A stretch of DNA of 64,000 nucleotides from Candidatus Bathyarchaeia archaeon (GCA_038870975.1 JAVZJD010000001.1:352001-416000), one strand, 5' to 3'; counted from the stretch's first letter, positions 22,157-44,079 are shown. Made by a program: numbers and translations. The notes: generated by a model not told the origin, from the sequence alone.

Positions 22157-22251
22157 TGCTTTCACTAATTAAGCTATTAGCAGAAGAGAGAAATTGAAAA
22201 ACGAAGAATTAAGCCGAAAGCCTTAAATTAAAAGTGACCTAAAACCTACTC

Positions 22252-24267: not shown

Positions 24268-24275
24268 ACCCCCCA

Positions 24276-24282
24276 TTTTTTT
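24276..24282 (+). terminator. Oligo-T archaeal terminator after transporter paralog 1
   Basis: T7 run shortly after the stop; equivalent runs follow the other two copies (33898-33904, 36964-36968). Confidence 0.45.
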
Positions 24283-24346
24283 CCATTAAGCCGATTACGA
24301 CACTATTAAATATGTGACCATGTATGCATAACGTTGGTGGTTTAAC

Positions 24347-25657: not shown

Positions 25658-25780
25658 CTTGCCCTTAAGTATTCCTACTAAGTTTGCCTTTAAATTTTCC
25701 CCTATATCATTACTAGTGGTTAAATGTTATCTTCCCCTCAGATTTATTCACAAAAAGATATCCTTACTATTCTGGAGAGG

Positions 25781-26708: not shown

Positions 26709-26845
26709 TTTGCTCTAAAGAATTCTACGACCTTGTATAATTAATGATTTTCCCTCCTCATAATCAAATATAAGTGGGTTTTCGAATAGTATGTATAAAT
26801 TTTGAGCGTTAACATGTACATTTTCATCTTAAGGACTGGCAAGGC

Positions 26846-28039
26846 TTATGATGATGCGAGTTCATCTAACGCTTTAAGAGCGTCTATTATCGCATTTTTC
26901 TCGACGACGCCAGAAGCCGCTACGGTGTGTCCATCGGCAAATCCTCCGAATTTCGAGCAGGCTTCTGGAAGTATTCTGGATAGTGGAGACTTCTCACCAG
27001 CCGCTATTCTATCGGCTAGTGGCTTCGGAGCCCTTGTAGAGATCTTAATGTATGTCTTCTCCAGCTTACCGTATCCCGGTATATCTGGTAGAACATCCAT
27101 GTAGCCGACAATGTACTTATCCTTATCTATGAAACCTTGATACTGAAGATAACTGCAGAAGCTTCCTATGACTTTAGTTCCCATGCCTCTATACACACCT
27201 CTATCTGAAAACCACTGTATAGCCTTCATTTTAGCTGGCTTCTCTCTTCTAAGAATGCTTAGCAACGTAGCGTTAGCTTTCTTCCTCTCTTCTTCGAGTT
27301 TAGAAGCCTCCTCATAGTCTTCGTCTTTAAAACCATTCATACATGCTTTTAATGCTCTCATAGGTCCTCCCCTGTAGTATCCTACGGAGGCTAAAACAGA
27401 TAGTATCGTCGAGTATCGCCTGTACGAAAGAGGCTTACCGAGGCTCATAATCTTAAAATCCTCTTTCTCCAATTGAATAAAACCGCCATTCAACGCATCT
27501 CTTAAAGCCAATTGATTTAAACCTGTAAGTGGACCTGGAATTTCAGCAGCCCCTATTAAAGCTAAAGTTGAAAGGTCTAAATTGTTAGAGTCTAGCGTTT
27601 TAGCGAATAAGTATGCGACAGTTGAAGCTGAAGCATCTTTCTCGCCAGATAAACCGTAGAGTTCAGGGTTTACATTTAAAACGTCACTGCGTGAGGATTG
27701 TAAAGTGTCATGGTGGTCAAGTATTACTGTTAAACTCCCCCTAGGTGCTTCCCTCTCAATTAATTTGACGTGAGCCGAGCCGATGTCAGTGAATAAGTAT
27801 AACCCCTCTCCCCGAGTATACACACCTTTTAAAACCTCAGGGTAGAGCTTATCAAGACAAATCGTTTTAAAACTCAAACCCGCTCTATTTAATGCTTTAG
27901 CCGTTATCGTAGCGGAACATACACCGTCAGCTTCGTCATGGTGGATTATGAATGCCTCACTAAAACCAGCTTCCCTTATCCTGACAACAGCCTCCTCCAA
28001 TAGTTTGAGAAAAGCATCTACTGTTAAACTCCCACCCAA
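26846..28039 (-). CDS. DHH-family phosphoesterase (RecJ/GAN-like)
   Basis: HHDEADG, FTDIGS, ILDHH, VNPELYG and C-terminal DHHA1 DGH.VAASG. Confidence 0.88.
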   Translation of the reverse strand: MGGSLTVDAFLKLLEEAVVRIREAGFSEAFIIHHDEADGVCSATITAKALNRAGLSFKTICLDKLYPEVLKGVYTRGEGLYLFTDIGSAHVKLIEREAPRGSLTVILDHHDTLQSSRSDVLNVNPELYGLSGEKDASASTVAYLFAKTLDSNNLDLSTLALIGAAEIPGPLTGLNQLALRDALNGGFIQLEKEDFKIMSLGKPLSYRRYSTILSVLASVGYYRGGPMRALKACMNGFKDEDYEEASKLEEERKKANATLLSILRREKPAKMKAIQWFSDRGVYRGMGTKVIGSFCSYLQYQGFIDKDKYIVGYMDVLPDIPGYGKLEKTYIKISTRAPKPLADRIAAGEKSPLSRILPEACSKFGGFADGHTVAASGVVEKNAIIDALKALDELASS

Positions 28040-28138
28040 ATGAAACTTGTCACCTGTGAAAGAAAAGCATTTACCTTTTCACCTTAAATATAGGTAAGGT
28101 TATAATGTTATCTACTAGAGTAGTAGAGGGGTGCTGTA

Positions 28139-29683
28139 ATGCTTCTTAAGGTCAAGAGACTGTACATAGAGGCTGGTGGTAAGCCTATAGTCCTACTCAA
28201 TAAAGAGGATGCCGACGATATAGGTGTTAGAGCGCTTGGACGCGTTAAAATTGTAACCACCGAGGGGCGTGAGCTTACATCTGTAGTAAACGTAACCTAT
28301 AGGGCTGTTGAAAAAGGCGTCATAGGCGTATATGATGAAGTAGCCTCTAGGCTTAAACTTGAAGATGGCTCTCTAGTAGATGTCAGACTTTCTGAACCAC
28401 CTAAAAGCACATATTTCATAAGGGAGAAGCTTAAGGGTAAGAAGCTAACATATCCTGAGATCTATGAGATAGTTAGAGATGTTGTAGATGGCCGCTTAAC
28501 AGAAGTTGAAATATCGGCCTTCGTAACAGCTTTACACACCTTTGGTTTAGATTTAGATGAGGCTACAAGTTTAAGCAAAGCTATGGTTGAAGTAGGTGAG
28601 ACCTTAAACTTGGACGACGCTTTTGTAGTAGATAAACATAGCATAGGTGGCGTTCCAGGAGATAAAACGAGCTTATTAGCCGTTCCAACAATAGCCGCTT
28701 CAGGACTGGTCATACCTAAGACCAGTTCAAGGGCGATAACGAGTGCTGCAGGTACAGCTGATAGGGCTGAAGTACTTATGCCTGTTAACTTAGGCCTAGA
28801 GGAGATAAAGTCTGTTGTTAGAAAAACCGGGGGTTGTCTCGTCTGGGGTGGAGCTTTACACCTTTCTCCTGCAGATGATATATTCGTACAAGTGGAGTAT
28901 CCTTTAGCCATAGACCCTTTGCTACTACCCAGTATCATGAGTAAGAAAAAAGCCGTTAACGCTAAGATACTCGTAATAGACATCCCAACTGGAAGAGGGA
29001 CTAAGGTTAAAACCATAGGTGAGGCTAATGCTTTAGCTAAAGACTTTATAGAGCTTGGTCGTAGATTAGGTATACAGACCAGTTGCGCTATAACCTACGG
29101 TGAGCAACCAATTGGATATGCTATTGGACCAGCTTTAGAGGCTAAAGAGGCGTTGGAAACTTTAATGGGTTCTAATAAGGCCTTAGACCTTCTAAATAAA
29201 GCTGCAAACGTAGCTGGAGCATTATTTCAAATGGCTGGTGTAGGCGACTTTAATACCGCCCTTCAACTGATAACGTCTGGTAGATCTGAGAAAAAACTTA
29301 GGGAGATTATTGCAGCTCAAGGTGGAGACCCAGATATTAAACCAGAAGATATACCCATTGGAGATAAAACATGCGAAGTTAAAGCTGAAAACGACGGTAT
29401 GGTTTTGTGGATAGATAATGGTAGACTAATAGAAATCGCCAGAGCTGCTGGTGCACCTAAAGACAAAGGTGCTGGAATACTTCTCAATAAAAAGATCGGT
29501 GATCATGTTGAAAAAGGAGATACCCTTTTCACAATCTACGCAGAATCTTCGGTTAAACTTCAAACGGCCATAGAGCTTGTAGAAGAAAGAAGCTTCATAG
29601 GCGTTGGCAAAAGTATGGATATGCTCATACAATTTATACATGAAGCGCCAGTGTATGGAAGAAGGTTTGAGCTGGAAAGATAG
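28139..29683 (+). CDS. deoA: AMP phosphorylase
   Basis: N-terminal extension typical of AMPpase; DKHSIGGVPGDK, PKTSSRAITSAAGTAD, SIMSKK, AGAPKDKGAG. Confidence 0.93.
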   Translation: MLLKVKRLYIEAGGKPIVLLNKEDADDIGVRALGRVKIVTTEGRELTSVVNVTYRAVEKGVIGVYDEVASRLKLEDGSLVDVRLSEPPKSTYFIREKLKGKKLTYPEIYEIVRDVVDGRLTEVEISAFVTALHTFGLDLDEATSLSKAMVEVGETLNLDDAFVVDKHSIGGVPGDKTSLLAVPTIAASGLVIPKTSSRAITSAAGTADRAEVLMPVNLGLEEIKSVVRKTGGCLVWGGALHLSPADDIFVQVEYPLAIDPLLLPSIMSKKKAVNAKILVIDIPTGRGTKVKTIGEANALAKDFIELGRRLGIQTSCAITYGEQPIGYAIGPALEAKEALETLMGSNKALDLLNKAANVAGALFQMAGVGDFNTALQLITSGRSEKKLREIIAAQGGDPDIKPEDIPIGDKTCEVKAENDGMVLWIDNGRLIEIARAAGAPKDKGAGILLNKKIGDHVEKGDTLFTIYAESSVKLQTAIELVEERSFIGVGKSMDMLIQFIHEAPVYGRRFELER

Positions 29684-29742
29684 TCTTAAAACATTCCATT
29701 TTTATATTCGATTGTATAATCGGTTAAAGGATAAAAGTCTGA

Positions 29743-31056
29743 GTGGTAATAAGTTTAATGGTGGCTCTGGGTTTGGCTAAAGTCTACTTGGAAGTCTATG
29801 GATGTAGTGCTAATGTGGCTGATGCTGAGGTGATGCTTGGGCTACTTAGAAGTAGAGGCTATGAGATAGTTGATAGTCCAGAAAAAGCGGACGTCAACAT
29901 CGTAGCTACTTGCACCGTTAAAACACCCACCGAGCATAGGATGATTCACGTGATATCTAGCCTATCTAAACTTGAGAAGCCACTTGTAGTAGCGGGATGC
30001 ATGCCTCTAACAAGTAGAGAAGCTATAGAGCGTATAAACCCCAAGGCCTCTCTACTAGGTGCTAGAGCCGTTACACGAATAGTCGATGCTGTTGAAACAG
30101 CCCTACATGGAGGTAGATTCATTAAACTTATCGAGCCGGGGGATACTCCACTATGTAAACCCAGAGTTAGACTTAAACAGTTCATAGGTATAGTTCCAAT
30201 AGCTCAAGGATGCCTTGGAAATTGTAGCTTTTGTCAAGTTAAAATTGCAAGAGGCTCTCTTAGAAGCTATCCACCGGATTTAATCGTCGAAGAAGTCCGT
30301 AGAGCTTTAGAACACGGTTGTAAAGAAATATGGTTGACTTCTCAAGACAATGGATGCTACGGTATCGACCTAGGCTTGACGTTAGCAGACCTGCTTGAGA
30401 AAATCCTGAAGATAGAGAAGGACTTTAAAGTTAGAATCGGTATGATGAACCCAGTGCATCTACAAACCTTCATAGATAGAATTTTAGACCTGTACTCAGA
30501 CCATAGGGTTTTCAAATTCGCCCATATTCCAGTCCAGTCTGGAAGCGACAAAGTTTTGAATGATATGCGTAGAGGCTACACGGTTGTAGATGCTGAGTAT
30601 GTTATGAACAAGTTTAGGTCCAAGTATCCTGAGCTTTCACTTATGACAGACGTAATAGTTGGATATCCAACAGAATCTGAGGAAGATTTTGAGGCTACGC
30701 TTAACTTCATAAAGCGTGTAGAGCCTGATCATGTTAACGTTTCAAAATTCGGAGCTAGACCTAAGACTGAAGCCTACAAGCTTAGGCCTCTACCGCCCAT
30801 AGTTGTTAAGAAGCGCGTTCAAAGATTGAACGAGCTATGTCTCGACATATCCTATAAGCGCAATTTAAACTGGTTAAACTGGATCGGCGAAGTAATAGTT
30901 GAAGAACGAGGCTTAAAACCTGGAAGTTGGATAACTAGAAATTACGCTTATAAACCCATCGTTGTTTTATACGATGGAAATATTCTTGGCGAGAAGCTTA
31001 AAATTAGAATAGTTAAAGCTTATCGTAACTTTCTACAGGCAGATGTGCTGAATTAA
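29743..31056 (+). CDS. mtaB: tRNA t6A methylthiotransferase (MtaB/e-MtaB type radical SAM)
   Basis: UPF0004 Cys motifs (YGCSAN, TCTVK, AGCM), CxxxCxxC (CLGNCSFC), PVQSGSD, C-terminal TRAM domain. Confidence 0.88.
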   Translation: MVISLMVALGLAKVYLEVYGCSANVADAEVMLGLLRSRGYEIVDSPEKADVNIVATCTVKTPTEHRMIHVISSLSKLEKPLVVAGCMPLTSREAIERINPKASLLGARAVTRIVDAVETALHGGRFIKLIEPGDTPLCKPRVRLKQFIGIVPIAQGCLGNCSFCQVKIARGSLRSYPPDLIVEEVRRALEHGCKEIWLTSQDNGCYGIDLGLTLADLLEKILKIEKDFKVRIGMMNPVHLQTFIDRILDLYSDHRVFKFAHIPVQSGSDKVLNDMRRGYTVVDAEYVMNKFRSKYPELSLMTDVIVGYPTESEEDFEATLNFIKRVEPDHVNVSKFGARPKTEAYKLRPLPPIVVKKRVQRLNELCLDISYKRNLNWLNWIGEVIVEERGLKPGSWITRNYAYKPIVVLYDGNILGEKLKIRIVKAYRNFLQADVLN

Positions 31057-31213
31057 CTCGTCAGATTTCAACACCCACTGCGTGCAGTGACAGACGCCCA
31101 TAGAATATGCCATCAAAAGATTGGAAAGCCTTCAAAGAAAACCTACAGGAGACATTACTAACGCACTAAAAACATGGTGGGGCCGGCCGGATTTGAACCG
31201 GCGACCGACGGGT

Positions 31214-31278
31214 TTCACCAGCGCTCCAGAATTCTCATCATCCTCTTCCTGAGTCCTACCCCGGTCGCCATCCAGCTT
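31214..31278 (-). ncRNA. 65-nt canonical (37/38) intron containing a box C/D-like guide RNA
   Basis: Relaxed BHB at 37/38; ATGATGA box followed by TTCTGGAGC (antisense to the anticodon loop) and a degenerate D box CTGG. Confidence 0.75.
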
Positions 31279-31287
31279 CTGGAGCCC

Positions 31288-31318
31288 TTAACGAGCCCAA
31301 TCCTTGTGGATTAGGCTT
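31288..31318 (-). other. 31-nt non-canonical tRNA intron at position 28/29
   Basis: BHB geometry: central helix GACG/CGTT, bulges AC^A and AA^G, intron hairpin AGCCTAATCC-ACAA-GGATTGGGCT. Confidence 0.85.
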
Positions 31319-31519
31319 GTCGTCCTGCCTGGCTAGACTACGGCCCCACCAGAATAGACTACGTATTTCTCGCCATTATAAATCTTACTTCCTCCTCTTT
31401 AAATATCTTAGAGTTTTCTATTTCCATAACGTATTCAAACCCTACTTCTATGGACGCCCATAGTTGCTTTTTTATTAGGTCTTGAAAAAGATGTGAAGAA
31501 CATCTGTTTATTCCAAAAG

Positions 31520-31780
31520 ATAATGGTGGATTTAGCGAAGAATGAAGGCTAGATAATTGACTACTGTCCTAATTGTAGAAAGCACGTAGGCTCTGATTTT
31601 GATAAATATAGAGGTAAAGAAGGGGGCCTCTATTATGCGAGAAGTTCAGAATGGTATTTACATTATTTGAACTGGCAGGAGCTGACAGCAGATGCCGTTC
31701 CCACTGGAGACGAGGACCTCCTATATCAAGCGTTGCTAGCATGTCTCTACATCCAGAATATGGATGCAGAATTCATGTAG
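31520..31780 (+). pseudogene. C-terminal remnant of a family 4 glycoside hydrolase
   Basis: 31652-31780 translates to WYLHYLNWQELTADAVPTGDEDLLYQALLAC, matching the GH4 C-terminal QELTVEAALTGD..LYQAL pattern. Upstream IMVDLAKNEG* is interrupted by a stop. Confidence 0.65.
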
Positions 31781-31906
31781 CGGTTTAAGACGTAGTGGCA
31801 AACCAGCTGAAGACATGATCTATTCTATACATTTTTAAATTCTTCAACTGTAGGATAGTAGATTTTTAACAGTTAAACATAAATAATTTTGAGTCTGTAT
31901 TAGTGT

Positions 31907-33886
31907 ATGGTGGAAATGTCAAAGGAAGTTGTTAAAGAGAAGTTTCCATGGTTGCTCGTAATATTAATACCGCTGTTATTGAGCTTAATAGGGCCTATAT
32001 GGCAATTGCTTATAGGTAGTTTCCCCTACTGGATTACCAGTGCATTAGGCGAGTCTGTCTGCCATATAGGGTTAACTACAGCGCCATTCCTAATGCTTCT
32101 GTTAACCGCCCCACTTTATAAATTTAAATCTCTAAGGGACAGGTTAGGTGTTAAAACCTTGGCATACCTATACATAAGCTCTTTAGCAACATCGTACTTC
32201 ATACACTATCCATGGGCGCTGTGTACACACTATATGTATGCTCTAAGAATTACATTACGCGAGCTGGCAGACATGGTTATACCGACTTTTATGGCCCCTC
32301 CGTATGAAGTGGCCATTCTCCTATCAGAGGGTGGACCAATAGACTGGGGTGCTTGGGCAACTCCAATTACCTGGTATTGGCTTCTAAACGTAACCGTAAG
32401 CTTTTTCATGCTGTCACTGGCTACTCTATTTAGAAGACTCTGGATAGATATAGAAAAGGTGCCATTTCCACACGGTTTGATTGCATATGAATTGGCCGAA
32501 AACATCTCTAGGGAAAAGGGTTGGAGTAGGTTTTTCTTAATAGGAGTACTACTAGGACTTATTTTCCAAATTCCAGTAACTCTCACTGGAATATTCCCAT
32601 GGTTTCCAGACGTATACGGCGTCAACTACAGATCTTGCCCCATGCTAACGCGATGGTTTGGAGGGGATGAGCCTTTAGGTACCATACCGGGTATGATGAG
32701 TATGACGTACAGTCCTACTGCGGTGGCCGTAGCTTACATGGCTCCTCTGCACATACAGTTTAGCACATGGTTTTTCGCTTTAGTATACATAATAGCCGTT
32801 CAAATATCTTACTACATGGGCTATTACACCGGAATAACAGGCATAGGTACATGTGGTAGATATTGGTGTAGCCCATCTCCATCTACAGACCCACCTCTTA
32901 AATTTATGGCTGTAGCAGTAGGTGCTTTAATAGCATTTGGCATTATGCATTTAATACTTAATAGAAGATATATAATTGAAACCTTTAAAGAAGCATCTAA
33001 AAGCTCTAGCGAGTTTAAAGAAGAAGTTATGACCTACAGAACGTGTTACATAATGCTGGCTATTTCTCTCGTAGCTTCCACGCTGTTCTGGATGTGGTCT
33101 ACCATGACGCTTTTAGATGCATTAATCATGGCTTTAACTGCTTTTTGCATATGGTATCCCATGAGCAGGCTTTTTGGATTAGCCGGAGCATACTGGAGAA
33201 GTGTAGACAAGGGCTTCGTTTTCTTCAGATTACTCTATCCGACTTGTCATGACCCGCCAACGACTAGAGAATTCCTAGTGTTTAGGATGTCCACTTTCTT
33301 GTCGGATACACCATCTTACCCGTGGGGTGGAGCCGCCGTCTCATCATTTACATCCTATAAATTTGCCAGTCTTGCTGGTCTAAGCGCAAAAGATGCATTT
33401 AAAACACTAGCCACAGCTTTTCTGATAGCGCCTCTCGTATCGAATATCGCCCTCATATGGCTCCTACATGCAGTAGGCGGTAGACGTATAGGAATATGGT
33501 CAAGTTGGTACTTGGGAGGAACCTGGGCGCTAACTGGTGTACCTACAAGCTGGGTTACACTACCAGCTCGCGAGCCTTGGGTTGAATATAGCATAATTGG
33601 AGCTATAATAGCTATTGCGCTCAGCTTACTTCACGCCAGGTTCGTATGGTTCCCACTTGAACCCATAGGTTACATATTAGGTACTACATGCGCTTCGGCT
33701 CTCTTCGGATTATGGTCTGCTTTTCTTGTTGCATGGGTGCTTAAAATGCTGACTTTGAGAATTGGAGGCGCTAAACTCTATGAGGAGAGCGGTATTCCAA
33801 TAGCCTCTGGAGCAGTAACAGGATGTATGATAGGGATGATATTAGGCGGAATAATATGGATAATAAGGTTCTTCATACCGTTTTAA
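31907..33886 (+). CDS. Large multi-pass membrane protein (DUF6785/DUF6784, OPT-like putative transporter), paralog 2
   Basis: Same motifs as 22252-24267: WIDIEKVPFP, WFPDVYG, CGRYWC, LHARFVWFPLEPIG, ending IRFFIPF. Confidence 0.7.
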   Translation: MVEMSKEVVKEKFPWLLVILIPLLLSLIGPIWQLLIGSFPYWITSALGESVCHIGLTTAPFLMLLLTAPLYKFKSLRDRLGVKTLAYLYISSLATSYFIHYPWALCTHYMYALRITLRELADMVIPTFMAPPYEVAILLSEGGPIDWGAWATPITWYWLLNVTVSFFMLSLATLFRRLWIDIEKVPFPHGLIAYELAENISREKGWSRFFLIGVLLGLIFQIPVTLTGIFPWFPDVYGVNYRSCPMLTRWFGGDEPLGTIPGMMSMTYSPTAVAVAYMAPLHIQFSTWFFALVYIIAVQISYYMGYYTGITGIGTCGRYWCSPSPSTDPPLKFMAVAVGALIAFGIMHLILNRRYIIETFKEASKSSSEFKEEVMTYRTCYIMLAISLVASTLFWMWSTMTLLDALIMALTAFCIWYPMSRLFGLAGAYWRSVDKGFVFFRLLYPTCHDPPTTREFLVFRMSTFLSDTPSYPWGGAAVSSFTSYKFASLAGLSAKDAFKTLATAFLIAPLVSNIALIWLLHAVGGRRIGIWSSWYLGGTWALTGVPTSWVTLPAREPWVEYSIIGAIIAIALSLLHARFVWFPLEPIGYILGTTCASALFGLWSAFLVAWVLKMLTLRIGGAKLYEESGIPIASGAVTGCMIGMILGGIIWIIRFFIPF

Positions 33887-33971
33887 ACAATCCATTATTT
33901 TTTTAGACGTTTTCTATGCAAGTCTGTGGGAAAACCTTTTAACGTTCTTACATCGATTTTTCAAATCAAAC

Positions 33972-34548
33972 TTGACCACTTAAAGTTTTAACAGTGAAAA
34001 TGATGAGGGCGCTGGGGGAATACGAAAGGACTCTAAACATTCCATGCAATACGTCTTCGAGCATATGGAAGGCTACTACGGATACCGGGAGAACTACGTT
34101 GACTTGCTTATGGATGAGGAGTTACGCTCTTTAAGAACTGTATGCTTGAAGATACTGAAAAATGCTTCATAGAAGCTACGAACTATTCTAAAAACCTCTG
34201 CGTAGGCGTAACTGCATCCAGAATATAGGCAAGATTTAATACGACTTTACTATACTCGCTTGACATACGAAAATTTGTAGAATTTTCCATATAGCACAAA
34301 GAATATGGTCTGAAGCCCTTAAACAGGTTGAGAGAGCTGAGCTTATGCTTAGAGAATTATTAGGAAAATTGATTGATGAAACTAAGTTTGAATCGAATAA
34401 GCTGTCTAAGGAATTCGAAGATGTAAAATGGTTTCTTAGCACGCATACATGGAGCCGATGTTTCATTTGCAAACTTACACTATGTGCTAAGAGTTGGAAT
34501 ATATCGATTAATGAATTGTGAAAGGTGGGTTGAAGAGATAAATAAATT
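33972..34548 (+). pseudogene. Internally deleted, frameshifted copy of the DUF5107/TPR gene
   Basis: 33983-34005 matches 37046-37068 (gene start); 34012-34548 aligns with about 39568-40150 (e.g. aatgcttcatagaagcta, ctgtctaaggaattcg, gtttcatttgcaaacttaca). Confidence 0.88.
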
Positions 34549-34923
34549 TGTGGCATCTTTATATTATAAGTTTTTACTTGCTTTCTTGAAAAATCTCGCA
34601 GGAATACAGTTCTATATCGTATTGATTAAATGTCTCTGCATAGTTTAAGATATCAATCCAACTCTTTAATTCAGTTGTATGTAAGCGAACTTGTATAATC
34701 GCTCGACTAGAAACATTCAAGTTTTTCTCCATCAAACTTACATAGCTTTTTATGGATTTTCAAGTAAACTTCTCCACCTACTTTGAGGTGTCTTCTCTTC
34801 AAACTCTTAAAATTGTTTTTCAATGTTTTGACGTTAATAATTTAAGATGGATAATGTTTACTGTACCTACGTGCCCTTGAGGAATTCGAATTCTATAAAG
34901 TAGAGAGAATATGTGGTAGAAAC

Positions 34924-35379
34924 CTAAGAGCCATCAGAAGGTTTACAAGTAGAAGTTGTTTTAGTATTCAGCCAAATCCTCCTTATTCCAGGTATTTTAT
35001 CAAATTCTCCGTCTTCTGAAACTATCTGTTTAATTCCAGCTTTGGTCATGGAGGATACGTGAAGTGCATCTGAAGGTTTTAATCCATGATTGACCATAGT
35101 CTTCTTCATGGCATTATAGTCTGTGTAATCTATTGGGATAACGTCTAGGAGAGGCATCAACCTATCGATCAGCTCAAACACTTCAACCAGTGCAATCTTA
35201 TATTTTCTGGTTAAAATCCATAAGACCTCATCTATAACAACCATGTTGATGAATAAACGGTCTCTACGTTTAACGGCTTCCTTCAAAAAGTTCGTTACGT
35301 AGTTGAAGATTTCATCGCTCTCAGAGTATCTCAAGTATATCAGATAAGATGAGTCAAGGAAAATTTTCAAGGGCTTCAT
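34924..35379 (-). CDS. vapC: PIN-domain toxin (VapC)
   Basis: IFLDSS, VIDEV, LKPSDALH, SEDGEFD acidic PIN tetrad. Confidence 0.9.
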   Translation of the reverse strand: MKPLKIFLDSSYLIYLRYSESDEIFNYVTNFLKEAVKRRDRLFINMVVIDEVLWILTRKYKIALVEVFELIDRLMPLLDVIPIDYTDYNAMKKTMVNHGLKPSDALHVSSMTKAGIKQIVSEDGEFDKIPGIRRIWLNTKTTSTCKPSDGS

Positions 35380-35608
35380 CCTCTAAGCTGATCTTAGAGA
35401 CGAGTTTTGCTATCGGTTTTCTATATTCTCTTAACCAGTTTAGAAGCTCTTCAATATCCAACCCCTTCTGTAAGGAGATCTCGTTTTCCTTGACGTCTGC
35501 AATTACGTAGCTATAGGGCTTAATCCCAAGCTTATCCCTAAAAATCTTGGGAAGCACTATCTGCCCTTTAGGTCCAACTTTCAATTTAAGTTTAACCATA
35601 AGTATCAT
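35354..35608 (-). CDS. vapB: AbrB/MazE/SpoVT-type antitoxin (VapB)
   Basis: KVGPKGQIVLPK..R.KLGI; overlaps the PIN gene start. Confidence 0.88.
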   Translation of the reverse strand: MILMVKLKLKVGPKGQIVLPKIFRDKLGIKPYSYVIADVKENEISLQKGLDIEELLNWLREYRKPIAKLVSKISLEDEALENFP

Positions 35609-35735
35609 AAAGTATTACTATAAGTTTAACCATATAAATCTTCTTATGTTAAATACGCATGGATTTGATAACGTTGCTCACAATATTTGGGAAGGTTTTC
35701 AATCTATTAAAAAACTATCATTTAAACCGGTTTAA

Positions 35736-36701
35736 ATGGGCTCTCAATAAAAGATAACACTTCTTGGAGAGGAATCTCCTTCGTCCTATCCATGATTTAC
35801 GTGATGCTTGAGAATAAAGAGGTTCTTGAGGGTAGCGAAATATGTCTTATGGATATAGATCCTATGCGTCTCCTACTGCTAATAAGACTAGGTGAAAAAC
35901 TCTCTAGAAGAGCGAATGTTAAAATGAGGTTTACTTGGATTACAGACCCTAGGGAGGCTCTTGAAGGAGCTATGTTTGTTATGCCTGGTTATAGAATAGG
36001 TGGTGTGAAACATATGATGTTTGACTTCGAAATACCGATGAAGTATGGTATATGCGGCGGTGAAACTGCTGGTCCTGAGGCACGTTTATGGCTCAATGTA
36101 CTATTCCATCTACTCTCAACTAATGTAAGATGATAGAGGATTTATGTCCAGATGCTTGGGTTATAAGCTACGTTAATCCTACGAATTTTGTAGTAGATGC
36201 TGTTCGAAGAGTAACGAAGGTGAAGTTTATCGCTATTTGCGATACTTCATCGGGTTGCTATGAGAACTCTCCCACTGTGGTTAAATATACCTCCGTTCGA
36301 GAGGAGATACTGTGTTAATGAAGACATAAGACCGCAGGAGATAGGCGTTAATCATAATACTTGGCTTGTAGACCCTCTGGTTAATGGGGAAGACGCTATC
36401 CTCTACTTAGGATTATACTTAGAAAATATAAGGAAGATGAAGAGAAGTGTGTTCCAACGTTTTTCCGGGACCAGATGAGTTTACTATGCATCTCTTCGAG
36501 GTATACGGCTATGTAAACATCTGTGCATACTACTGTCACATGTACTGGGAGCACAATAAGGTTATGGAAATTGGGAAGAGAATACCTGAGGCGTCTATAT
36601 TAGGGTGGTCTAAGTCGGCTTGGGACTTCGTCAACGAAATGCTTGCCAGTGCTGACTACGACCCTAACAGCTCAGAATATTGCTTCCACTTACATCGCTC
36701 T
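35736..36701 (+). pseudogene. Family 4 glycoside hydrolase pseudogene (stop plus several frameshifts, 3' truncated)
   Basis: Fragments in shifting frames: KITLLG, LMDID, GGETAGP, CPDAWVISYVNP, AICD, GVNHNTW. Accounts for ORFs 35792, 36130, 36260 and 36447. Confidence 0.85.
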
Positions 36702-36950
36702 AGGTTCGTATGGTTTCCACTTGAACCCATAGGTTACACACTTGGTACTACAGGTGCTTCAGCCTTGTTCGGGTTATGGTCTGCGTTCCTCGTTACGTGG
36801 GTGCTTGAAATGTTAACTCTTAGAATTGGAGGAACTAAACTCTACGAAGGTTGTGGAGTTCCAATAACCTCTGGAGCCATAACAGGATGCATGATAGGAA
36901 TGATACTAGGCGGAATAATGTGGATAATAAGGTTCTTCATACCATTCTAA
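36702..36950 (+). pseudogene. 249-nt 3' remnant of a third DUF6785-like transporter gene, fused in frame to the GH4 remnant
   Basis: Colinear, high-identity copy of 33638-33886 (RFVWFPLEPIGY...IRFFIPF). Confidence 0.9.
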
Positions 36951-37028
36951 ATAAACCCCACCATTTTTCAGATGATTTTCAATGCAAATTCGTACAAAAT
37001 TTTAAAACTCTTACGTTAAATCCTTAAA

Positions 37029-40000
37029 TTGATGTTGCCCATTCGAAGTTTTAACTCTGAAAATGATGGAGCCGTGAAGGTTTGGGAAGGATATGTCGTC
37101 AAGCCCACTTACAGGATATTGAGAGAGGATAATCTTCCGTATTTTATGAGTAAATACTACCCTTATACTAGGTTAGACTTCTTCGATTATTCAGAACCCA
37201 CTCCAGTCAAGTATAAGGAACTCGTCGTGGAGAATGAATACCTTAAAATATCCGTTAGACCGGAGTTTGGCGCCCGCCTGTTCTCAGCGTTTGATAAAAT
37301 ATCTGAGAATCAAGTATTCCACTATGTTGACACAATCAAACCCTTCTTAATAGCTCAAAGGGGAGCATGGATTGCAGGGGGATTAGAGTTTAACTTATGC
37401 CAACATCCGAGCCATACGGCGGACAATTTTTCACCCGTCGATTACACGTATGTTAAGAATGAAGATGGAAGCGCCTCGATATTGATAGGTAACCTCATAC
37501 TGTATACTAACGTAAGATATTTAGTTGAGATTGCTTTAAGACCTAAGACTGCCAGGATAGATGTTCGCGTGAAAATCTTCAATACAGACCTCATTCCTCA
37601 GAGGTACTACTTCTGGTCTAATGCCGCCGTATCTGCAAGTGAAAACCTCCGTTTCTTCTACCCTGGTTCTCTCTCAAACATAGGTAAATTTCCAGTGAAT
37701 GAAGAAGGTATCGACTTAAGCTGGTATGTAAATTACGATAGACCATTGAGCATATTCATTCTAGATTCCGAAGAAGACTTTTTTGCCGCGTACGACTATA
37801 AGTCTTCCAAAGGACTTGTTCACTATGCAGATCACAACATCATTCCTGGGAAGAAGATATTCAGCTGGGGGCTATCTGAGGACGGCTTATTCTGGAAAGA
37901 CCTCCTATCAGATAAAGGCATACCTTACGTAGAAATTCAAAGTGGGCGTTTTCTAACTCAGGGGATAGTTGAGCTTATAGACCCGTTGAATTTTGAGTCT
38001 TGGGAAGAATACTGGTATCCAGTTCGAGATATGGATGGTATAACATATGCTAACGAAAAGGTAGCCATTTACATAAACGAGGAAAATAAAGCTGAGCGTA
38101 AACTTCAGATCAATGTATGTTCAGCCATATCGTGTAAAGCTAGGCTCATACTATACGCAGAGGGTGAAAAATTCCACGAGGAACTGATAGAGCTTTTACC
38201 TGAGAAGACACTTAAGAGAGAGGTTAGAGCACCGCTTGGAAAACTATTGCTTAAAATAATCGATGTAAATGGAGGGGAAATAATTTCATGGGATTTTCGA
38301 AGTTATAGAACAAAACCGCATGAAGCCCCCTCATGGATTGGAGAGGTCCCAAATTGGAACTGGGGTGATACTGCTGAAGAGCTTTGGTTGAAGGGAGTTG
38401 ATTCTCTAAAGAGGGAGACTTTTCTTAAAGCTGAAAGATACTTCACAGCTTCTTTGGAGAAGGATGGGGCCTTCTCTAAAAGTCTATGCGCTCTAGGACT
38501 CCTATATTATAGATCAGGTCTGTACGATAAAGCCGTATCCTTCTTTCAGAGGGCATTGATGAGAAATCCATATGATGAAGAAGCACGTTACTACCTTGGT
38601 TTAACAATGCTCGTTTTAAACAATCTCGAGGAAGCTGAGAGAGAACTCTGGAAGGTTTCCTCAAAAATAGGCTACAGACCGTTAGCACTATACCTCCTAG
38701 GTATTATAAGGATGAGGTTGAACGCGTATCGTGATGCTGAAGATATGTTGCAAAGAGCAATAAAAGAGTACAGTTACAATTTGAAAGCCTTATGCACTCT
38801 CTCCATGGCTCTTAGAAAGCAGGGGAAGCGTGAGGAGGCATGGAGGATTTTAGAGGAAGCACATCGTATAATGCCTCTCGATTACCTAGTGCTTGCGGAG
38901 AGGTATCTTCTATCTTCAGATGAGGAGTTTAAAAGAGTGGTCTTTACAAGCTTCCAGAAGGTTTTGGAGGCGTCAAAAGATTACATATTTGCAGGTCTAT
39001 TTGATGATTCATTGGCGATATTAAAAGCCGCATTGGAGCATGGTATACGTAATCCGCTAATCTACTATTACATTGGGTACTCCTACAAGAAGATGGGTAG
39101 ATTTAACGATGCAATAGACTACTACAAATATGGAGGTAGGGAAAGCATCGATTATGTTTTTCCGCATAGGTTAGAGGATTTAGAGGTTCTTAAAGACGTC
39201 GTTAGCAGTCTCCCATTAGATCCAACACCGCATTATTTACTCGGCAACGTCTTATTCTATCTGGGACGGTTTAAGGAGGGTCTTGAGGAATGGGAGAAGG
39301 CTTATATGCTTGGGTTGAGAAACGCTGTGCTTTGCCGCAATATTGCACATGCTCACGCTCTCTTAACATTTGACTACGATAGAGCTATTAACATGTACTT
39401 AGAGGCCATAAGACTTGAACCTGAAAATCATAAACTCTACGTGGAACTGGATGATATTTACTCAAAGACTGGCGACCATACTGAACGTGTTAAATTGCTG
39501 GAGAATATACCTCGGAAAGCTAAGCATAGTGCATTACTCGCTAGGCTTGCTTCAGCATACGTTGATACTGGGGAGTATGAGAAGGCTCTAAATATTCTAT
39601 GTAACACGTTTTTCGAGCCTATGGAGGGTTACTACGGGTTTTGGGAAATTTACGTTGATGCTCTTATGGCTAAAGGATTTACACTTTTCAAGAGCTGTAT
39701 GTTTGAAGATGCTGCAAAATGCTTCATAGAAGCTATGAGTTATCCTAAAAACCTCGGTGTAGGTGCACCGCATCCAAAATATAGGCGAGATCTAATGCAA
39801 CTTTACTATGCTGGTTTATCATATGAAAAGCTCGGAGAACTTTCTACTGCGCAGAGGATATGGTCTGCTGCTCTCCAACGGATTTCTGAGAATCCTGAGA
39901 ATCACGTATTTAAAGCTTTGATTTTACGAAAACTGGGAAGAGTTGAAGAATCCAGGCTTATGCTTAGAAAAGTCGTTGAGGAAGCCAAGTTAGAATTGAA

Positions 40001-40226
40001 TAGACTGTCTAAGGAATTCGGGGATGAAGATAGTTACTTAGCATCTATACATGGAACTGACGTTTCATTTGCAAACTTACATTATGTATTGGGGCTTGGG
40101 TACATCGCCCAGGGAATGATAGAGGCTGGAATTGAAGAAGTAGATAAATCGTTAAAATTGACCAAAGTTGTTAGACACGCGCGATGGATTAAAGATGGAA
40201 CAATTCCAATACCGTCGCTCCTCTAG
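37029..40226 (+). CDS. DUF5107-domain plus tetratricopeptide-repeat protein
   Basis: N-terminal YPY..., ENEYLK..V.PE.GAR, GAWIAGG.EFN, YYFWSNAA, PGKKIFSWG, YVEIQSG; long TPR-like C-terminal half with YPKNLG.G. Confidence 0.8.
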   Translation: MMLPIRSFNSENDGAVKVWEGYVVKPTYRILREDNLPYFMSKYYPYTRLDFFDYSEPTPVKYKELVVENEYLKISVRPEFGARLFSAFDKISENQVFHYVDTIKPFLIAQRGAWIAGGLEFNLCQHPSHTADNFSPVDYTYVKNEDGSASILIGNLILYTNVRYLVEIALRPKTARIDVRVKIFNTDLIPQRYYFWSNAAVSASENLRFFYPGSLSNIGKFPVNEEGIDLSWYVNYDRPLSIFILDSEEDFFAAYDYKSSKGLVHYADHNIIPGKKIFSWGLSEDGLFWKDLLSDKGIPYVEIQSGRFLTQGIVELIDPLNFESWEEYWYPVRDMDGITYANEKVAIYINEENKAERKLQINVCSAISCKARLILYAEGEKFHEELIELLPEKTLKREVRAPLGKLLLKIIDVNGGEIISWDFRSYRTKPHEAPSWIGEVPNWNWGDTAEELWLKGVDSLKRETFLKAERYFTASLEKDGAFSKSLCALGLLYYRSGLYDKAVSFFQRALMRNPYDEEARYYLGLTMLVLNNLEEAERELWKVSSKIGYRPLALYLLGIIRMRLNAYRDAEDMLQRAIKEYSYNLKALCTLSMALRKQGKREEAWRILEEAHRIMPLDYLVLAERYLLSSDEEFKRVVFTSFQKVLEASKDYIFAGLFDDSLAILKAALEHGIRNPLIYYYIGYSYKKMGRFNDAIDYYKYGGRESIDYVFPHRLEDLEVLKDVVSSLPLDPTPHYLLGNVLFYLGRFKEGLEEWEKAYMLGLRNAVLCRNIAHAHALLTFDYDRAINMYLEAIRLEPENHKLYVELDDIYSKTGDHTERVKLLENIPRKAKHSALLARLASAYVDTGEYEKALNILCNTFFEPMEGYYGFWEIYVDALMAKGFTLFKSCMFEDAAKCFIEAMSYPKNLGVGAPHPKYRRDLMQLYYAGLSYEKLGELSTAQRIWSAALQRISENPENHVFKALILRKLGRVEESRLMLRKVVEEAKLELNRLSKEFGDEDSYLASIHGTDVSFANLHYVLGLGYIAQGMIEAGIEEVDKSLKLTKVVRHARWIKDGTIPIPSLL

Positions 40227-40280
40227 GATTGTGGATTTCAAGTATTCGTTTAACAATTTTATAATCTCCTAAATATCATT

Positions 40281-40577
40281 TTAACCGCGTTTAAACTGTA
40301 GGTTTATCGGTTTTCCCTCTGATAGAATCTTCTCAGGTATTTTGTTTTTCCACTTTTCAAGAAACTCTAAGTCTTCTCTTAAATTTCTAAGCTCGTCTGG
40401 AAGCATTTCGGGAATTTCATCACGTATTGGATAAAATCTATTGCATTTAGAACACCAAATAAGGCCTTCAACTACTTCACCATCTTCTTTCTCTTCAAAT
40501 ATGAAGAGATCAAGAGGATAATGCTTATCGATGGGACATGCTAATATATCCATCAATCTCCTCTTCAACCATTTCAC
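40281..40577 (-). CDS. trm112: Trm112-family methyltransferase activator
   Basis: LMDILACPIDK, C..CNRFYPI.DEIPEMLPD. Confidence 0.9.
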   Translation of the reverse strand: MKWLKRRLMDILACPIDKHYPLDLFIFEEKEDGEVVEGLIWCSKCNRFYPIRDEIPEMLPDELRNLREDLEFLEKWKNKIPEKILSEGKPINLQFKRG

Positions 40578-41518
40578 CCCAAATAAACTTTTTCACCTTT
40601 ATAACTAGATTTAAGTATTGCTTCACATATTTTAAGTGCTTCTACTCCATCATTGGCCGTTAGAATTGGGGCTTCCTCACCCAGAATAGTGTTGATGAAG
40701 TGTCTAAGCTCTCTCATTAAGGGTTCTTCCCATTTAACAGTCGGCTGGAGAACCTTTTCAGAATCCTCTATTGAAACTTCTTGAGTTATATAGTCTAATG
40801 ACACAACAGCTTCACTTCCAGTAATTATCAAAGACCTAATCCTACGGGGTGTGAGCCAATTAGCTTCTATAAATCCTGTAACTCCACTTTTAAAGTGGAG
40901 AATGGCTTCAACATAGTCTTCAAACCTATGCCCAAGACTGCCGACTTTAGCATAAACACTTTCAACATCGCCAACGAGGAAACGCATCACATCTAAATCA
41001 TGTATAGCAGAATCTTTAACAACGCCAACATCTCCTACACGTTCAGGCCACCTTGAAACTCTCCTTGCAGTTATGAGTATAATTCGACCAAGTTCTCCAC
41101 CGTCTATTAATGTTTTGACTTTCCTCACGGCTGGGTTGAAACGCTCTATATGACCTGGCATGAGTCTAAGTCCTAGACTGCACGCCAAATCTCGAAGTTT
41201 CTCAGCATCCTCTAAAGTACTGCATAAAGGCTTTTCTGTTAAACTGTGGATCCCACGGTTTAGAACTTCAGATGTAATATCGAAGTGTGTAGTCGTCGGT
41301 GTACATATACTTACAGCATCTGGCTTTTCAACGAGGAGCATTTCCCGGAAATCGGTATATGCTCTGCAACCGTACCTTTTAGCTATACTTTTAGACTTTT
41401 CACGGTCTATGTCACATACTGCGACGAGTTCAACATCCTCTATTTCACTATAGACCCTGGCGTGGTTTCTACCCCAGAAGCCTACACCTATAACTGCTAC
41501 TTTAATCAGTGGAATCAA
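40574..41518 (-). CDS. Gfo/Idh/MocA oxidoreductase (nucleotide-sugar 3-dehydrogenase-like)
   Basis: GVGFWG.NHAR, TEKP, GHIERFNPA, D.AIHDLD. Confidence 0.9.
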   Translation of the reverse strand: MIPLIKVAVIGVGFWGRNHARVYSEIEDVELVAVCDIDREKSKSIAKRYGCRAYTDFREMLLVEKPDAVSICTPTTTHFDITSEVLNRGIHSLTEKPLCSTLEDAEKLRDLACSLGLRLMPGHIERFNPAVRKVKTLIDGGELGRIILITARRVSRWPERVGDVGVVKDSAIHDLDVMRFLVGDVESVYAKVGSLGHRFEDYVEAILHFKSGVTGFIEANWLTPRRIRSLIITGSEAVVSLDYITQEVSIEDSEKVLQPTVKWEEPLMRELRHFINTILGEEAPILTANDGVEALKICEAILKSSYKGEKVYLG

Positions 41519-42887
41519 CCCCTATACCTACATATATAAGATTGGCTTTTTCAGCCTCTTCACGGTCGAATATTCTACCAAAGTCTACTATGGCTATAGG
41601 TTTACCGTTAAGCCTCCTAAGGTTGTTTAAGCTTATATTCTTAAATTCATCGTGTGGCGTAGCTACGATTACGCAATCAATGTCTCTGACAATCCTTTTA
41701 AGACTTGAAGATGTTTTAAATCCCATTCTTTTAATTTCTTCGATCGTAAAATAAGGATCATACACTATCACTTCAGCTCCTTTTTTTAGAAGTTCATTTG
41801 CTAATTTAACACTGTAGGAGTTTCTGGCATTTTTAACGTTTGGTTTAAAACTCAATCCAAGTATAAGTATTCTAGAACGTCTAAGAGGCTTTCCAAGTCT
41901 TCTTAAAGCTTTCATCACAAGCCCATAATCGTGTTTTAGGAGGGACTCGTTTACTCTTAACGCCATTCTAACCATACGTAAATTGAAATTAACGTTTTCA
42001 GCTGAATTCTGCAAGAGTTGAGCATCCTTAGGTAAATGCCCTCCTACACCTATGCTAGGTTTGAGAAGATGACAGAAGGGTTGAGTTGTAGCAGCATTCA
42101 AAACATCAATATAGTCTACACCCATCTTTTCACACAGCATTGCAAGCTCATGGCTAACAATTAATGTGATAAAACGGTAAAAGTTTTCAAAAAGTTTCGC
42201 AGCCTCAGCTGTTTTAATATCTCTAACTTTAAAAATCCCTCCTTTAACAACGGTCTTCAAAACAGCCTCGCTGGCTTCAAGGCTTCTAGGTCCAACTGCC
42301 CCGACTACTCTTGGGTAGCTTACAAGGTCTCTCAATAGCGACCCTTCGGATCCTCTGAGGGGGCTGTATGCGAAGCCGAAATCCTGTTCCGCCTTTAAAT
42401 TGGATAGTGTCTCGATTCTCTCTTTAACTACTTCTTCGGTTATACCAGGACCAGTTGTACTACTTTGAATTATAAGACTGCCTCTTCTTACGCATGTTCC
42501 TAAGTCCTCTGCAACTTTACGGAGGGGGGTATAATCTGGAATACCAGCTTGGTTGACAGATACTGATATAACTACCATAATTACATCGGAATCTCTAACA
42601 GCAGATTTAAAATCCGTGGTTGGGTGGAATTTTTCCATTCTGAGTACTTTTTGAAGAAGTTCTTGGAGTCCCGGTTCAGGGTTTGAAATTATACCACGTT
42701 TAAGTTTGTCGATGAGTTCTACGCTTGTATCTACTCCATAAACTTCAGCCCCACTATCGGCATAAAGACACGCCAGCGGCAAACCCATAACTCCACAGCC
42801 TATTACACTCAGTTTAAGTAATCCTTTAGTAAGCATCCCTGGGATTTCATCAGGGTTTAAATCCATTATATTAGTCATTGGAGACAA
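41502..42887 (-). CDS. UDP-sugar/GDP-mannose dehydrogenase family protein with an atypical active site
   Basis: GCGVMGLP, STTGPG.T, AEAAKLFEN, GLSFKPN, YDPY, ATPH. GGHLPKD lacks the catalytic Cys. Confidence 0.88.
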   Translation of the reverse strand: MSPMTNIMDLNPDEIPGMLTKGLLKLSVIGCGVMGLPLACLYADSGAEVYGVDTSVELIDKLKRGIISNPEPGLQELLQKVLRMEKFHPTTDFKSAVRDSDVIMVVISVSVNQAGIPDYTPLRKVAEDLGTCVRRGSLIIQSSTTGPGITEEVVKERIETLSNLKAEQDFGFAYSPLRGSEGSLLRDLVSYPRVVGAVGPRSLEASEAVLKTVVKGGIFKVRDIKTAEAAKLFENFYRFITLIVSHELAMLCEKMGVDYIDVLNAATTQPFCHLLKPSIGVGGHLPKDAQLLQNSAENVNFNLRMVRMALRVNESLLKHDYGLVMKALRRLGKPLRRSRILILGLSFKPNVKNARNSYSVKLANELLKKGAEVIVYDPYFTIEEIKRMGFKTSSSLKRIVRDIDCVIVATPHDEFKNISLNNLRRLNGKPIAIVDFGRIFDREEAEKANLIYVGIGVDSTD

Positions 42888-42990
42888 ACCTCTATATACG
42901 CTTCAGTATTTAAAATTCTGGCTGAGAGAATTTAAATTATACCTTCTTAAAATTATCAACCCTTTGATAAAACTTTAATTCATTCTACTA

Positions 42991-44079
42991 ATGTTTAAGT
43001 GTCTGATGAGAATTTTACTCGATATTTTAACGCCGAAGCAATGTAGGTTTTTCTCAGTTTTAGGACGAAAACTAGAAGGTAAAGGTTTCGAAGTCTACAA
43101 AACAGCTAGAATATTCAGAGAAGTTGTTGAGCTTTTAGAACTATTAGGTGAAGAAGCCCATCTAACGGGCAGATACGGCGGGGCGACGCTTGAAGGGAAA
43201 CTTGAGGCTAGTTTAGAGCGGATGATAGAACTTAAAAAGGTTTTCCAAAAGATCAAACCTGATTTAGTCATATCATTTTCTTCTCCAGAGGCCTCTAGAG
43301 TAGCCTTTGGATTAAACATCCCTCACGTGGCTGTAAGCGATAGCCCCCATTCAACCGCCGTTTCAAAACTTTCCATTCCATTGTCTAGAATATTATTCAC
43401 ACCTTGGATTATACCCAAATCTGCTTGGACAATATATGGCATAGAACGCTCTAAAATCTTTAAATACAGGGCTTTAGACCCGGCTGCATGGCTTAAAGAT
43501 TTTAGACCAAACTTAGATATTGTTGCGTCACTAGGGCTATCTAAGGAAAAACCAATAGTAGTATTCAGGCTTGAAGAAAGCCAGGCATCGTATATACTCG
43601 GCATGGGTGGACTTGTCGAACAAACAGCCTTAAAAGCCATCCAGATGTTTGATATCCAAGCAGTTATAATGCCTAGATATGAGGAGCAAATGCGGAAAAT
43701 CTTAGAAAAATTCGGTGGGAAATCTTTAGTACTGGAAAAAACTATTGATGCCGTAAATCTATTGTATCACGCTGCGGTTTTCGTAGGGGGTGGTGGAACT
43801 ATGAACTCTGAAGCTGCCTTGCTAGGTGTTCCAACGATTTCGTGCTATCCGGGTGAAGATACATATGTTGAAAAATACCTTATGAGTAGGGGTCTCCTAC
43901 GTAAAGTTCATGACTCAGAGGAGGCTTTAAAATTCATACAAACTTTTCTAGAGTCTCGTGTAAGAGCCAATTTTAAAAGAAAAGCGAAAGAGATTTTAGC
44001 CTCCATGATAAATCCGGCAGAATTTATAGCGGAGAAAATCACCGAAATATTTTCCCGAGGAACTTCTTTTCAAGTTTAG
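42991..44079 (+). CDS. DUF354 family protein (GT-B-like fold)
   Basis: DILTPKQ..FF, G.YGG, SPEA.RVAFGL, FRLEE.QASY, GGGTMN.EAALLG.P. Confidence 0.82.
   Translation: MFKCLMRILLDILTPKQCRFFSVLGRKLEGKGFEVYKTARIFREVVELLELLGEEAHLTGRYGGATLEGKLEASLERMIELKKVFQKIKPDLVISFSSPEASRVAFGLNIPHVAVSDSPHSTAVSKLSIPLSRILFTPWIIPKSAWTIYGIERSKIFKYRALDPAAWLKDFRPNLDIVASLGLSKEKPIVVFRLEESQASYILGMGGLVEQTALKAIQMFDIQAVIMPRYEEQMRKILEKFGGKSLVLEKTIDAVNLLYHAAVFVGGGGTMNSEAALLGVPTISCYPGEDTYVEKYLMSRGLLRKVHDSEEALKFIQTFLESRVRANFKRKAKEILASMINPAEFIAEKITEIFSRGTSFQV

Follow-up and report, generated by a model that had tools for sequence, protein, structure and literature searches.

The 64,000-nucleotide (nt) window of DNA analysed here, from Candidatus Bathyarchaeia archaeon (GCA_038870975.1, JAVZJD010000001.1:352001-416000), contains at positions 31,520 to 40,226 (counted from the first letter of the window) two overlapping, partly deleted copies of one unit composed of a GH4 glycosidase gene, a DUF6785/DUF6784 gene for a predicted transporter (hereafter T) and a DUF5107+TPR gene (hereafter P). 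The left copy is called A and the right copy B, with the letter added in brackets to the gene names. Exactly one T and one P are intact at the locus, and both GH4 genes are dead. A preceding sequence-only reading of the window had proposed both the two partial copies and the retention of one T and one P with loss of both GH4 genes, and self-alignment together with the mapping of the remnants on intact orthologs bears these claims out. We consider it probable that the locus combines a resident copy B with a far more divergent copy A, both pruned by deletion, beside a gene that we take to encode tRNA-Trp.

The self-comparison that the earlier reading had suggested as a check was made with blastn on positions 31001-40500 and gives two collinear matches, one pairing 33625-34005 with 36689-37068 (78.1% over 384 nt, E 8e-84) and the other pairing 34015-34485 with 39570-40087 (70.5%, E 7e-66). 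The remnants were then delimited by tblastn with intact orthologs from genomes of the same genus (G001-G004; the genome holding the window is G000) as probes. The intact 447-amino-acid (aa) GH4 protein of G001, which has both GH4 Pfam domains (PF02056 and PF11975), aligns through aa 13-325 with 35771-36704 in copy B (E 2e-105), and T orthologs align through aa 572-651 with 36684-36923, where the 167-aa open reading frame (ORF) 36447-36950 ends in a DUF6784 tail. The N-terminal GH4 domain model PF02056 matches 35780-36264 in two frames with TGA and TAA inside (E 6.8e-17 for model positions 11-111 and 7.7e-14 for 112-175). Copy B thus has the structure proposed before, i.e. a frameshifted GH4 gene joined by deletion to the last part of a transporter gene.

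The same G001 protein recovers a second remnant at 31658-31789 in copy A (aa 390-446, 56% identity, E 6e-12), and the GH4 orthologs of G001, G003 and G004 together give 54-56% identity with E values between 5e-12 and 2e-11. This stump is 62-68% identical at the nucleotide level to the relatives' genes, which are 83-94% alike among themselves. Identifying it requires the relatives' orthologs, because the C-terminal domain model PF11975 has no match in the window at E<=1 and the genome's own nine GH4 paralogs, all intact and located elsewhere, yield marginal matches at 31661-31768 (E 0.05-0.3). Of the two profile searches envisaged earlier, therefore, the N-terminal one finds copy B and the C-terminal one finds nothing. 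The sequence-only reading had correctly seen a C-terminal GH4 remnant in copy A but had overestimated its extent, which is 132 nt rather than the 260 nt of 31520-31780; positions 31520-31657 are a spacer homologous to that on the tRNA-Trp side in G004. Its claim of an internal deletion of ~2.5 kb in the TPR gene of copy A is fully supported, since the remnant P'(A) comprises the first ~12 codons (33972-34005) followed by aa ~845-1037 in three frames (34015-34547), and the counterpart of P(B) 37069-39569 is missing. Homology of P'(A) ends at 34547, ~75 nt short of the position of the P stop codon. The coordinates of all features are listed in table 1.

Table 1. Features of the GH4-transporter-DUF5107/TPR locus and its surroundings, from left to right.
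Feature	Position in the window	Strand	Basis
tRNA gene with intron, left anchor of the variable region	31175..31347	-	Rfam partial match; 88-92% conserved in relatives
Resident spacer U1 beside tRNA-Trp (assumed identity), common to G004	31348..31657		Nucleotide alignment with G004 C56
Junction J1, U1 to C-terminal part of GH4(A) at microhomology	31655..31672	+	Spacer-to-GH4 homology switch
GH4 remnant, copy A: last 57 codons, aa 390-446 of 447, with stop	31658..31789	+	tblastn
T(A), intact DUF6785/DUF6784 predicted transporter, 659 aa	31907..33886	+	Pfam, fold, dN/dS
P'(A), DUF5107/TPR remnant	33972..34547	+	blastn/tblastn to intact P
AT-rich spacer Z	34548..34923		No counterpart in relatives' loci
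PIN-domain gene (VapC-like), between the copies	34924..35379	-	Pfam PIN, E 1e-15
84-aa ORF upstream of the PIN gene, putative antitoxin	35354..35608	-	ORF list; conserved in G004/G002 by tblastx
GH4 pseudogene, copy B: aa 1-325 of 447	35736..36701	+	PF02056 matches, tblastn
Junction J2, in-frame fusion of GH4 codon ~325 and transporter codon ~572	36687..36703	+	Microhomology
Transporter tail, copy B: aa 572-659, resident type	36702..36950	+	Identity to G001/G004
P(B), intact DUF5107+TPR gene, 1065 aa, resident ortholog	37029..40226	+	Pfam, aa identity

GH4 proteins are NAD+/Mn2+-dependent glycosidases defined by the two domains mentioned, both of which are present in the relatives' orthologs; the pseudogene of copy B matches the N-terminal one but lacks aa 326-447 and has eight disabling lesions, and copy A is reduced to a 57-codon stump. 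The lesions of GH4(B) are a TAA at codon 5, a TAC>TAA change near 36121 and six 1-nt deletions, one of which falls in an N-terminal Gly-rich stretch (LLGGGSP in the relatives), presumably the NAD-binding motif. With its reading frame interrupted and the Gly-rich motif broken, GH4(B) does not qualify as a functional GH4 gene. Its 44 lineage-specific substitutions are spread evenly over codon positions (14/17/13), and such substitutions amount to 4.6% in each of the two remnants of copy B, the GH4 part and the transporter tail. P'(A) has likewise accumulated 10 indels and 90 copy-specific substitutions in 535 nt (16.8%; 31/28/31 by codon position). A perfect 20-nt palindrome (core TTTAAACCGGTTTAAA) at 35719-35738 overlaps the start codon of the GH4 pseudogene; with small changes it is found upstream of GH4 in G001, G003 and G004 too, and it could serve as an operator or belong to a promoter.

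The locus was compared among relatives by a DNA search across 40 related genomes followed by locus alignments. A single GH4-T-P unit occupies the locus in G004 and G002, and in G001, G003 and the metagenome loci L036/L037 and L042 a GH4-T pair is directly followed by a gene for a GFO/IDH/MocA oxidoreductase, which in the window lies downstream of P(B) at 40574-41518. In L038/L039, the tRNA gene is accompanied by T only, without GH4 and P. The search for triplets proposed by the sequence-only reading thus succeeded in G004 and G002 but not farther away: the GH4-DUF6785-DUF5107 arrangement is restricted to G000, G002 and G004, i.e. to one lineage, and GH4 occurs at none of 17 other DUF5107 loci surveyed in the phylum (flanks of up to 10 kb, some loci ending at a contig end). 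Decay is seen in the relatives as well, with an in-frame TGG>TAG change in the GH4 gene of G002 (L027, G002 C51 7173-8516), a frameshift near codon 70 in the transporter gene of G003 (L031, G003 C8 7833-9802, reverse complement) and ~270 extra nt between the GH4 and transporter genes of the latter genome. What stays constant at the locus is the transporter, around which GH4 and DUF5107/TPR genes come and go; this argues against treating neighbouring genes as fixed partners of the transporter or as clues to its substrate.

Copy B is the resident unit, orthologous to the single unit of the relatives, because its identities and trees follow the local species tree. Its identity to G004 is 90.2% in the GH4 part, 89.7% in the transporter tail and 88.6% in P, to be compared with 89.3% in the flanking MiaB-like gene. 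The tree of the flanks groups G000 with G004 (support 81/85), and so does that of GH4(B) (support 95/92). The transporter tail of copy B is 81-84% identical at the protein level to the transporters of G001 and G004, and at the nucleotide level it is closer to G004 than to copy A (83.2%). P(B) shares 85-88% of its amino acids with its orthologs in G002 and G004.

Two of the joints can be read by taking the sequences of G004 as a proxy for the ancestral ones. At J2 (~36687-36703), the G004 GH4 stretch CTTACATCACGCTAGA and the G004 transporter stretch CTTACTTCACGCTAGA are identical at 15 of 16 positions and both encode L-x-H-A-R; the window changes from GH4 to transporter inside this stretch, with both flanking alignments in frame 3. 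At J1 (~31655-31672), it is the G004 tRNA-side spacer CTACACAGTTTAAACT and the C-terminal region of the G004 GH4 gene CTACACACTTTAAACT that agree at 15 of 16 positions, and the window changes from spacer to GH4 homology inside the stretch. The alignment of spacer U1 with G004 C56 is readable to ~31672, beyond which G004 runs into unrelated DNA.

A structure of this kind could arise in assembly, if two divergent strains in a mixed population yielded a chimeric or collapsed contig. The host genome (1.85 Mb, two contigs) is indeed a metagenome-type assembly, estimated as 92.9% complete with 2.3% contamination, and the two copies differ by ~20-30%, like co-occurring species would. The 111-kb JGI metagenome contig Ga0209394_1000042 (L035) nevertheless spans the whole structure in one alignment, matching window positions 24314-43883 in one high-scoring segment pair (99.63%), with the GH4(B) lesions and all three junctions identical. 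It differs from the window at 72 sites over 19.6 kb and therefore represents another strain and another assembly. Because this independent contig has the same layout, and since assemblers are not misled by a microhomology as short as 16 nt, misassembly is very improbable. The exact T(A) protein is, in addition, recorded on nine contigs in public assemblies.

Turning to the origin of copy A, T(A) is 82-83% identical to its counterparts in all four members of the genus, which are 85-90% alike among themselves, and it sits on a long branch (0.20). Synonymous distances (dS) of T(A) are 0.98 to G004, 1.09 to G002 and 1.24 to G001, compared with 0.47 between G004 and G002 and 0.42 between P(B) and G004. 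The three-point estimate of the synonymous branch is ~0.80 for T(A) and ~0.26 for P(B), with the G004 branches equal in the two genes. Since T(A) has about three times the synonymous branch length of the resident P, copy A is best regarded as an old paralog or an import and not as a recent duplicate, and we conclude from these distances that it probably split from the lineage of copy B several times earlier than G000 split from G004. The sequence-only reading had left duplication and repeated acquisition side by side; the latter, with its visible divergence of the copies, fits better, and a simple recent duplication does not. A mosaic structure or gene conversion as the source of the divergence of T(A) was ruled out, as the divergence is uniform along the gene and the nearest paralog in the genome is 72% identical.

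We find it unlikely that the segment carrying the PIN/antitoxin-like pair, GH4, T and P was duplicated in tandem in situ after the split from G004 and then suffered three deletions, with copy A evolving fast. P'(A) is, admittedly, of the same P subtype as P(B) and the genes of G004 and G002, and the right end of copy A, abutting spacer Z ~75 nt before the P stop, resembles a duplication junction. A recent duplicate should not be more divergent than the nearest species is, yet here dS to G004 is 0.98 for T(A) and 0.42 for P(B); remnants of copy A are ~3.7 times more diverged than those of copy B; and T(A) as a sister of G004 is rejected (approximately unbiased (AU) test, p 0.005), while the flanks and GH4(B) group with G004. 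Relaxed selection fails to explain the long T(A) branch, because the ratio of nonsynonymous to synonymous substitution rates (dN/dS) is unchanged at ~0.05.

An old paralog and an import are the two sub-cases of the reading that we favour. The vertical one, to which we give some credence though less than an even chance, is that the unit was duplicated in tandem long ago, at the crown of the genus or earlier, and that copy A was then lost independently in G004, in G002 and in the G001/G003 clade. By dS, T(A) is at least as deep as the G001-G004 split, no donor lineage was found in the databases searched, and tandem repeats collapse easily by homologous recombination. It requires, on the other hand, three or more independent complete losses, and G004 keeps an undeleted spacer that passes the J1 site into unrelated DNA with neither a GH4 remnant nor any other trace of copy A found in it. 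As the G004 spacer is intact past J1, this junction either postdates the split or is an integration joint, the latter being what the other sub-case, import by illegitimate recombination, would imply. P'(A) being of the same subtype as the P genes of copy B, G004 and G002, the source of copy A would have carried the same trio.

Several observations weigh against a resident copy B joined by a far more divergent, pruned copy A, and some of them equally favour a recent duplication. Trees built on the 981 alignment columns that A and B have in common do not settle the topology: a sister grouping of the two copies is not rejected by the AU test, with p 0.22 on the concatenation, p 0.22 again on the C-terminal TPR part and p 0.32 on the tail by itself. 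Branch lengths and T(A), matched in copy B over no more than 88 codons, must therefore carry the argument for a deep origin. The G000 lineage is long-branched generally (0.114 in the flank genes, compared with 0.060 for G004). The base composition of T(A) carries no signal of foreign origin, and the databases searched contain no A-like transporter elsewhere, cluster members being either identical to T(A) or B-like. The third joint, J3 (34005-34015), at which P codons 13-844 were removed, shows no clear microhomology, and at the other two the stretches now present in the window have diverged from the G004 sequences used as their proxy.

If copy B is resident and copy A old or foreign, the history of the locus can be reconstructed as follows. 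In copy B, one deletion of ~2.2 kb between the 16-nt, 15/16-identical stretches in GH4 and near the 3' end of the transporter gene would have taken the 3' end of GH4, the intervening spacer and transporter codons 1-571, leaving an in-frame fusion, and the stranded GH4 part would then have drifted, acquiring stops, 1-nt deletions and substitutions at all three codon positions alike. Copy A (31658-34547), descended from an old paralog or brought in from an unsampled relative that carried the same trio, would have been joined to the tRNA-side spacer at the second 15/16 microhomology, retaining 57 GH4 codons, an intact T and a TPR remnant without codons 13-844 and the last ~25. Two transporters of the unit would thus have existed in the genome until the deletion in copy B, and the present state of one T, one P and no GH4 at the locus would reflect the loss of redundant or dispensable genes.

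The retained transporter is a plain member of its family. T(A) matches DUF6785 (PF20581; E 5e-33, 114.9 bits, cut-off 25) and DUF6784 (PF20580; E 2e-15, 57.2 bits, cut-off 26.4), the tail of copy B likewise matching the latter. It has all 29 invariant columns of a 47-sequence alignment, and its 659 aa fall within the family length of ~650-690 aa. With a dN/dS of 0.04-0.055, the same as between orthologs, it is under normal purifying selection (about 0.05), and a TATA-like motif TTAAA(C/T)ATAAATAA is conserved ~30 nt upstream. Its homologs are named 'DUF6785 family protein' in metagenome-assembled genomes of Bathyarchaeia and Thermoproteota, and our literature search on DUF6785, DUF6784, DUF5107 and yphG found no functional study. 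The AlphaFold (AF2) model of T(A) based on the 47-sequence alignment (mean predicted local distance difference test score 92.6) was compared with the PDB by Foldseek, and the only significant match is barley YS1 (7wsr_A; E 6.9e-8, probability 1.00, template modelling (TM) scores 0.64/0.70, 675 columns), the next matches having TM scores below 0.2. The OPT/Yellow-Stripe fold of T(A) is clear from the model, and a transport role is predicted on this basis. The match to HvYS1 (PDB 7wsr/7wst), a member of the OPT/YSL superfamily (PF03169), covers the whole length of the predicted fold, but T(A) is only 14% identical to it and has no match to the PF03169 profile hidden Markov model at E<=10, a sequence search of the PDB with T yields nothing, and the family is present in 21 copies in this 1.85-Mb archaeal genome.

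All 21 DUF6785 genes of the genome are full-length. The L035 strain, 99.6% identical to ours, is without the DUF6785 paralog at 22252-24267, owing to a 2,075-nt indel (window 22239-24314 versus L035:2400-2420) flanked by a short direct repeat TTAAAT..GTGACC, and represents another case of a family copy gained or lost at microhomology.

P(B), the sole DUF5107 protein of the genome, matches PF17128 over aa 42-332 (E 2e-56, 191.5 bits) and many TPR models over aa ~470-860, and no N-terminal hydrophobic stretch suggestive of a signal peptide is recognizable by eye. It is taken to be a cytoplasmic protein. Its dN/dS of 0.12-0.15 is as between orthologs, and it is under purifying selection. The DUF5107 domain is shared with BDI_1685 of Parabacteroides distasonis, whose structure (PDB 5cd6) is unannotated and matches aa 43-332 of P(B) at E 5e-23, and a control search with DUF5107 retrieved matches from Escherichia coli and Bacteroides thetaiotaomicron; we assume that YphG of E. 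coli is a member of the DUF5107/TPR family. In the AF2 model of P(B), the TPR solenoid is confident and the N-terminal DUF5107 domain is poorly modelled, and a fold search returned generic TPR scaffolds only. DUF5107 is present in 19 of 401 sampled genomes of the phylum. Within the genus, every genome has a single DUF5107/TPR gene, though its location varies; that of G001 (C2 24040-27200; 54% protein identity to P(B)) lies beside proteasome and Fae-Hps genes, and that of G003 (C25 13787-14485) is a short open frame of 277 aa that may be broken.

The sequence-only reading took the retention of one T and one P as a sign of selection on a transporter-TPR partnership, for which we find weak support. 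The specific form of this idea, in which the OPT-fold transporter has P as its physical or functional partner in the cytoplasm and the pair is kept, the glycosidase being dispensable, appears unlikely to us. Purifying selection acts on T(A) as well as on P(B), but selection of this kind on each gene independently would also preserve one copy of whatever is still needed. In G371, a DUF5107/TPR gene lies directly beside a co-oriented DUF6784-type gene, and in G051 one lies beside a convergent OPT gene (PF03169); with ~4-5 such transporter genes in these genomes, adjacency by chance has a probability of ~1% per locus by a rough, post hoc estimate, so that the association may exceed chance. Together with the present genus, a pairing of DUF5107 with an OPT-type gene is seen in three unrelated archaeal lineages. 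In the fetched flanks of the remaining 15 of the 17 other DUF5107 loci, however, there is no such transporter. Seven related loci (G001, G003, L036/L037, L042 and L038/L039) keep T without P, 20 of the 21 T paralogs of this genome are without P, 21 DUF6785 genes standing against one DUF5107 gene, and P homologs in G001 and G007 lie beside unrelated genes (proteasome, Fae-Hps, ROK). A looser functional link between T and P could still exist. We are even more sceptical of the bolder proposal that OPT-fold (DUF6785/OPT) transporters have DUF5107/TPR proteins as dedicated partners in the cytoplasm, and that gene loss at this locus has amounted to a natural experiment: transporter and partner stayed, in part through the swapping in of an older or foreign transporter, and the attached glycosidase was discarded. 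The loci of G371 (L051, C6, 3300-16416) and G051 (L056, C2, 867-15086) both contain, beside the DUF5107/TPR and OPT-superfamily genes, a gene for a giant MacB/FtsX-type permease (1548-1610 aa), that of G371 being fused to an M28 peptidase domain, and in G051 the DUF5107/TPR gene occurs as a tandem pair.

Duplication followed by complementary gene loss, and deletion mediated by microhomology, are known evolutionary processes. Here, too, two copies of a cluster have lost different members, and 15/16-nt direct repeats are found at two of the three joints; the difference from a fresh pair of duplicates is that one copy is about three times older by synonymous distance, and the locus looks more like one in which an old or foreign copy has displaced the resident transporter. 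The case is one of a cluster duplicated or acquired anew and then pruned by deletions, i.e. ordinary evolution and no new kind of system, and its value lies in being a well-resolved example in an uncultured archaeon, with two of three deletion joints readable to the base. Because two joints lie in direct repeats and the L035 strain lost another DUF6785 paralog at a short repeat, we suggest that microhomology-mediated deletion contributes to the turnover of the 21-copy OPT-fold family.

The surroundings of the two copies deserve brief comment. The intron-containing gene at 31175..31347, labelled here as tRNA-Trp by assumption, gives a partial, sub-gathering match to the Rfam tmRNA clan (acceptor and T-arm with CCA, E 2e-8), and ARAGORN found no tRNA there when run on the window. 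Between the copies, the 84-aa ORF upstream of the PIN gene is a putative VapB-type antitoxin, judging from its position. G004 and G002 keep only the first codons of the PIN gene and the small ORF, their homology beginning at ~35261-35367; spacer Z and the PIN gene have no homology to the ~1-kb spacer of G004, in which there is an unrelated ORF of 166 aa. DNA similar to the toxin-antitoxin-like pair (34924-35608, minus strand) occurs at other places in G001, G006 and G007. Spacer Z has no match in the relatives' loci, and the 34500-34999 bin that encloses it has a guanine-cytosine content of 0.316. An element of ~45 nt within it, at 34723-34769, has three more copies in the genome with 83-86% identity (C1:148371-148413, C1:477974-478010 and C2:270249-270296).

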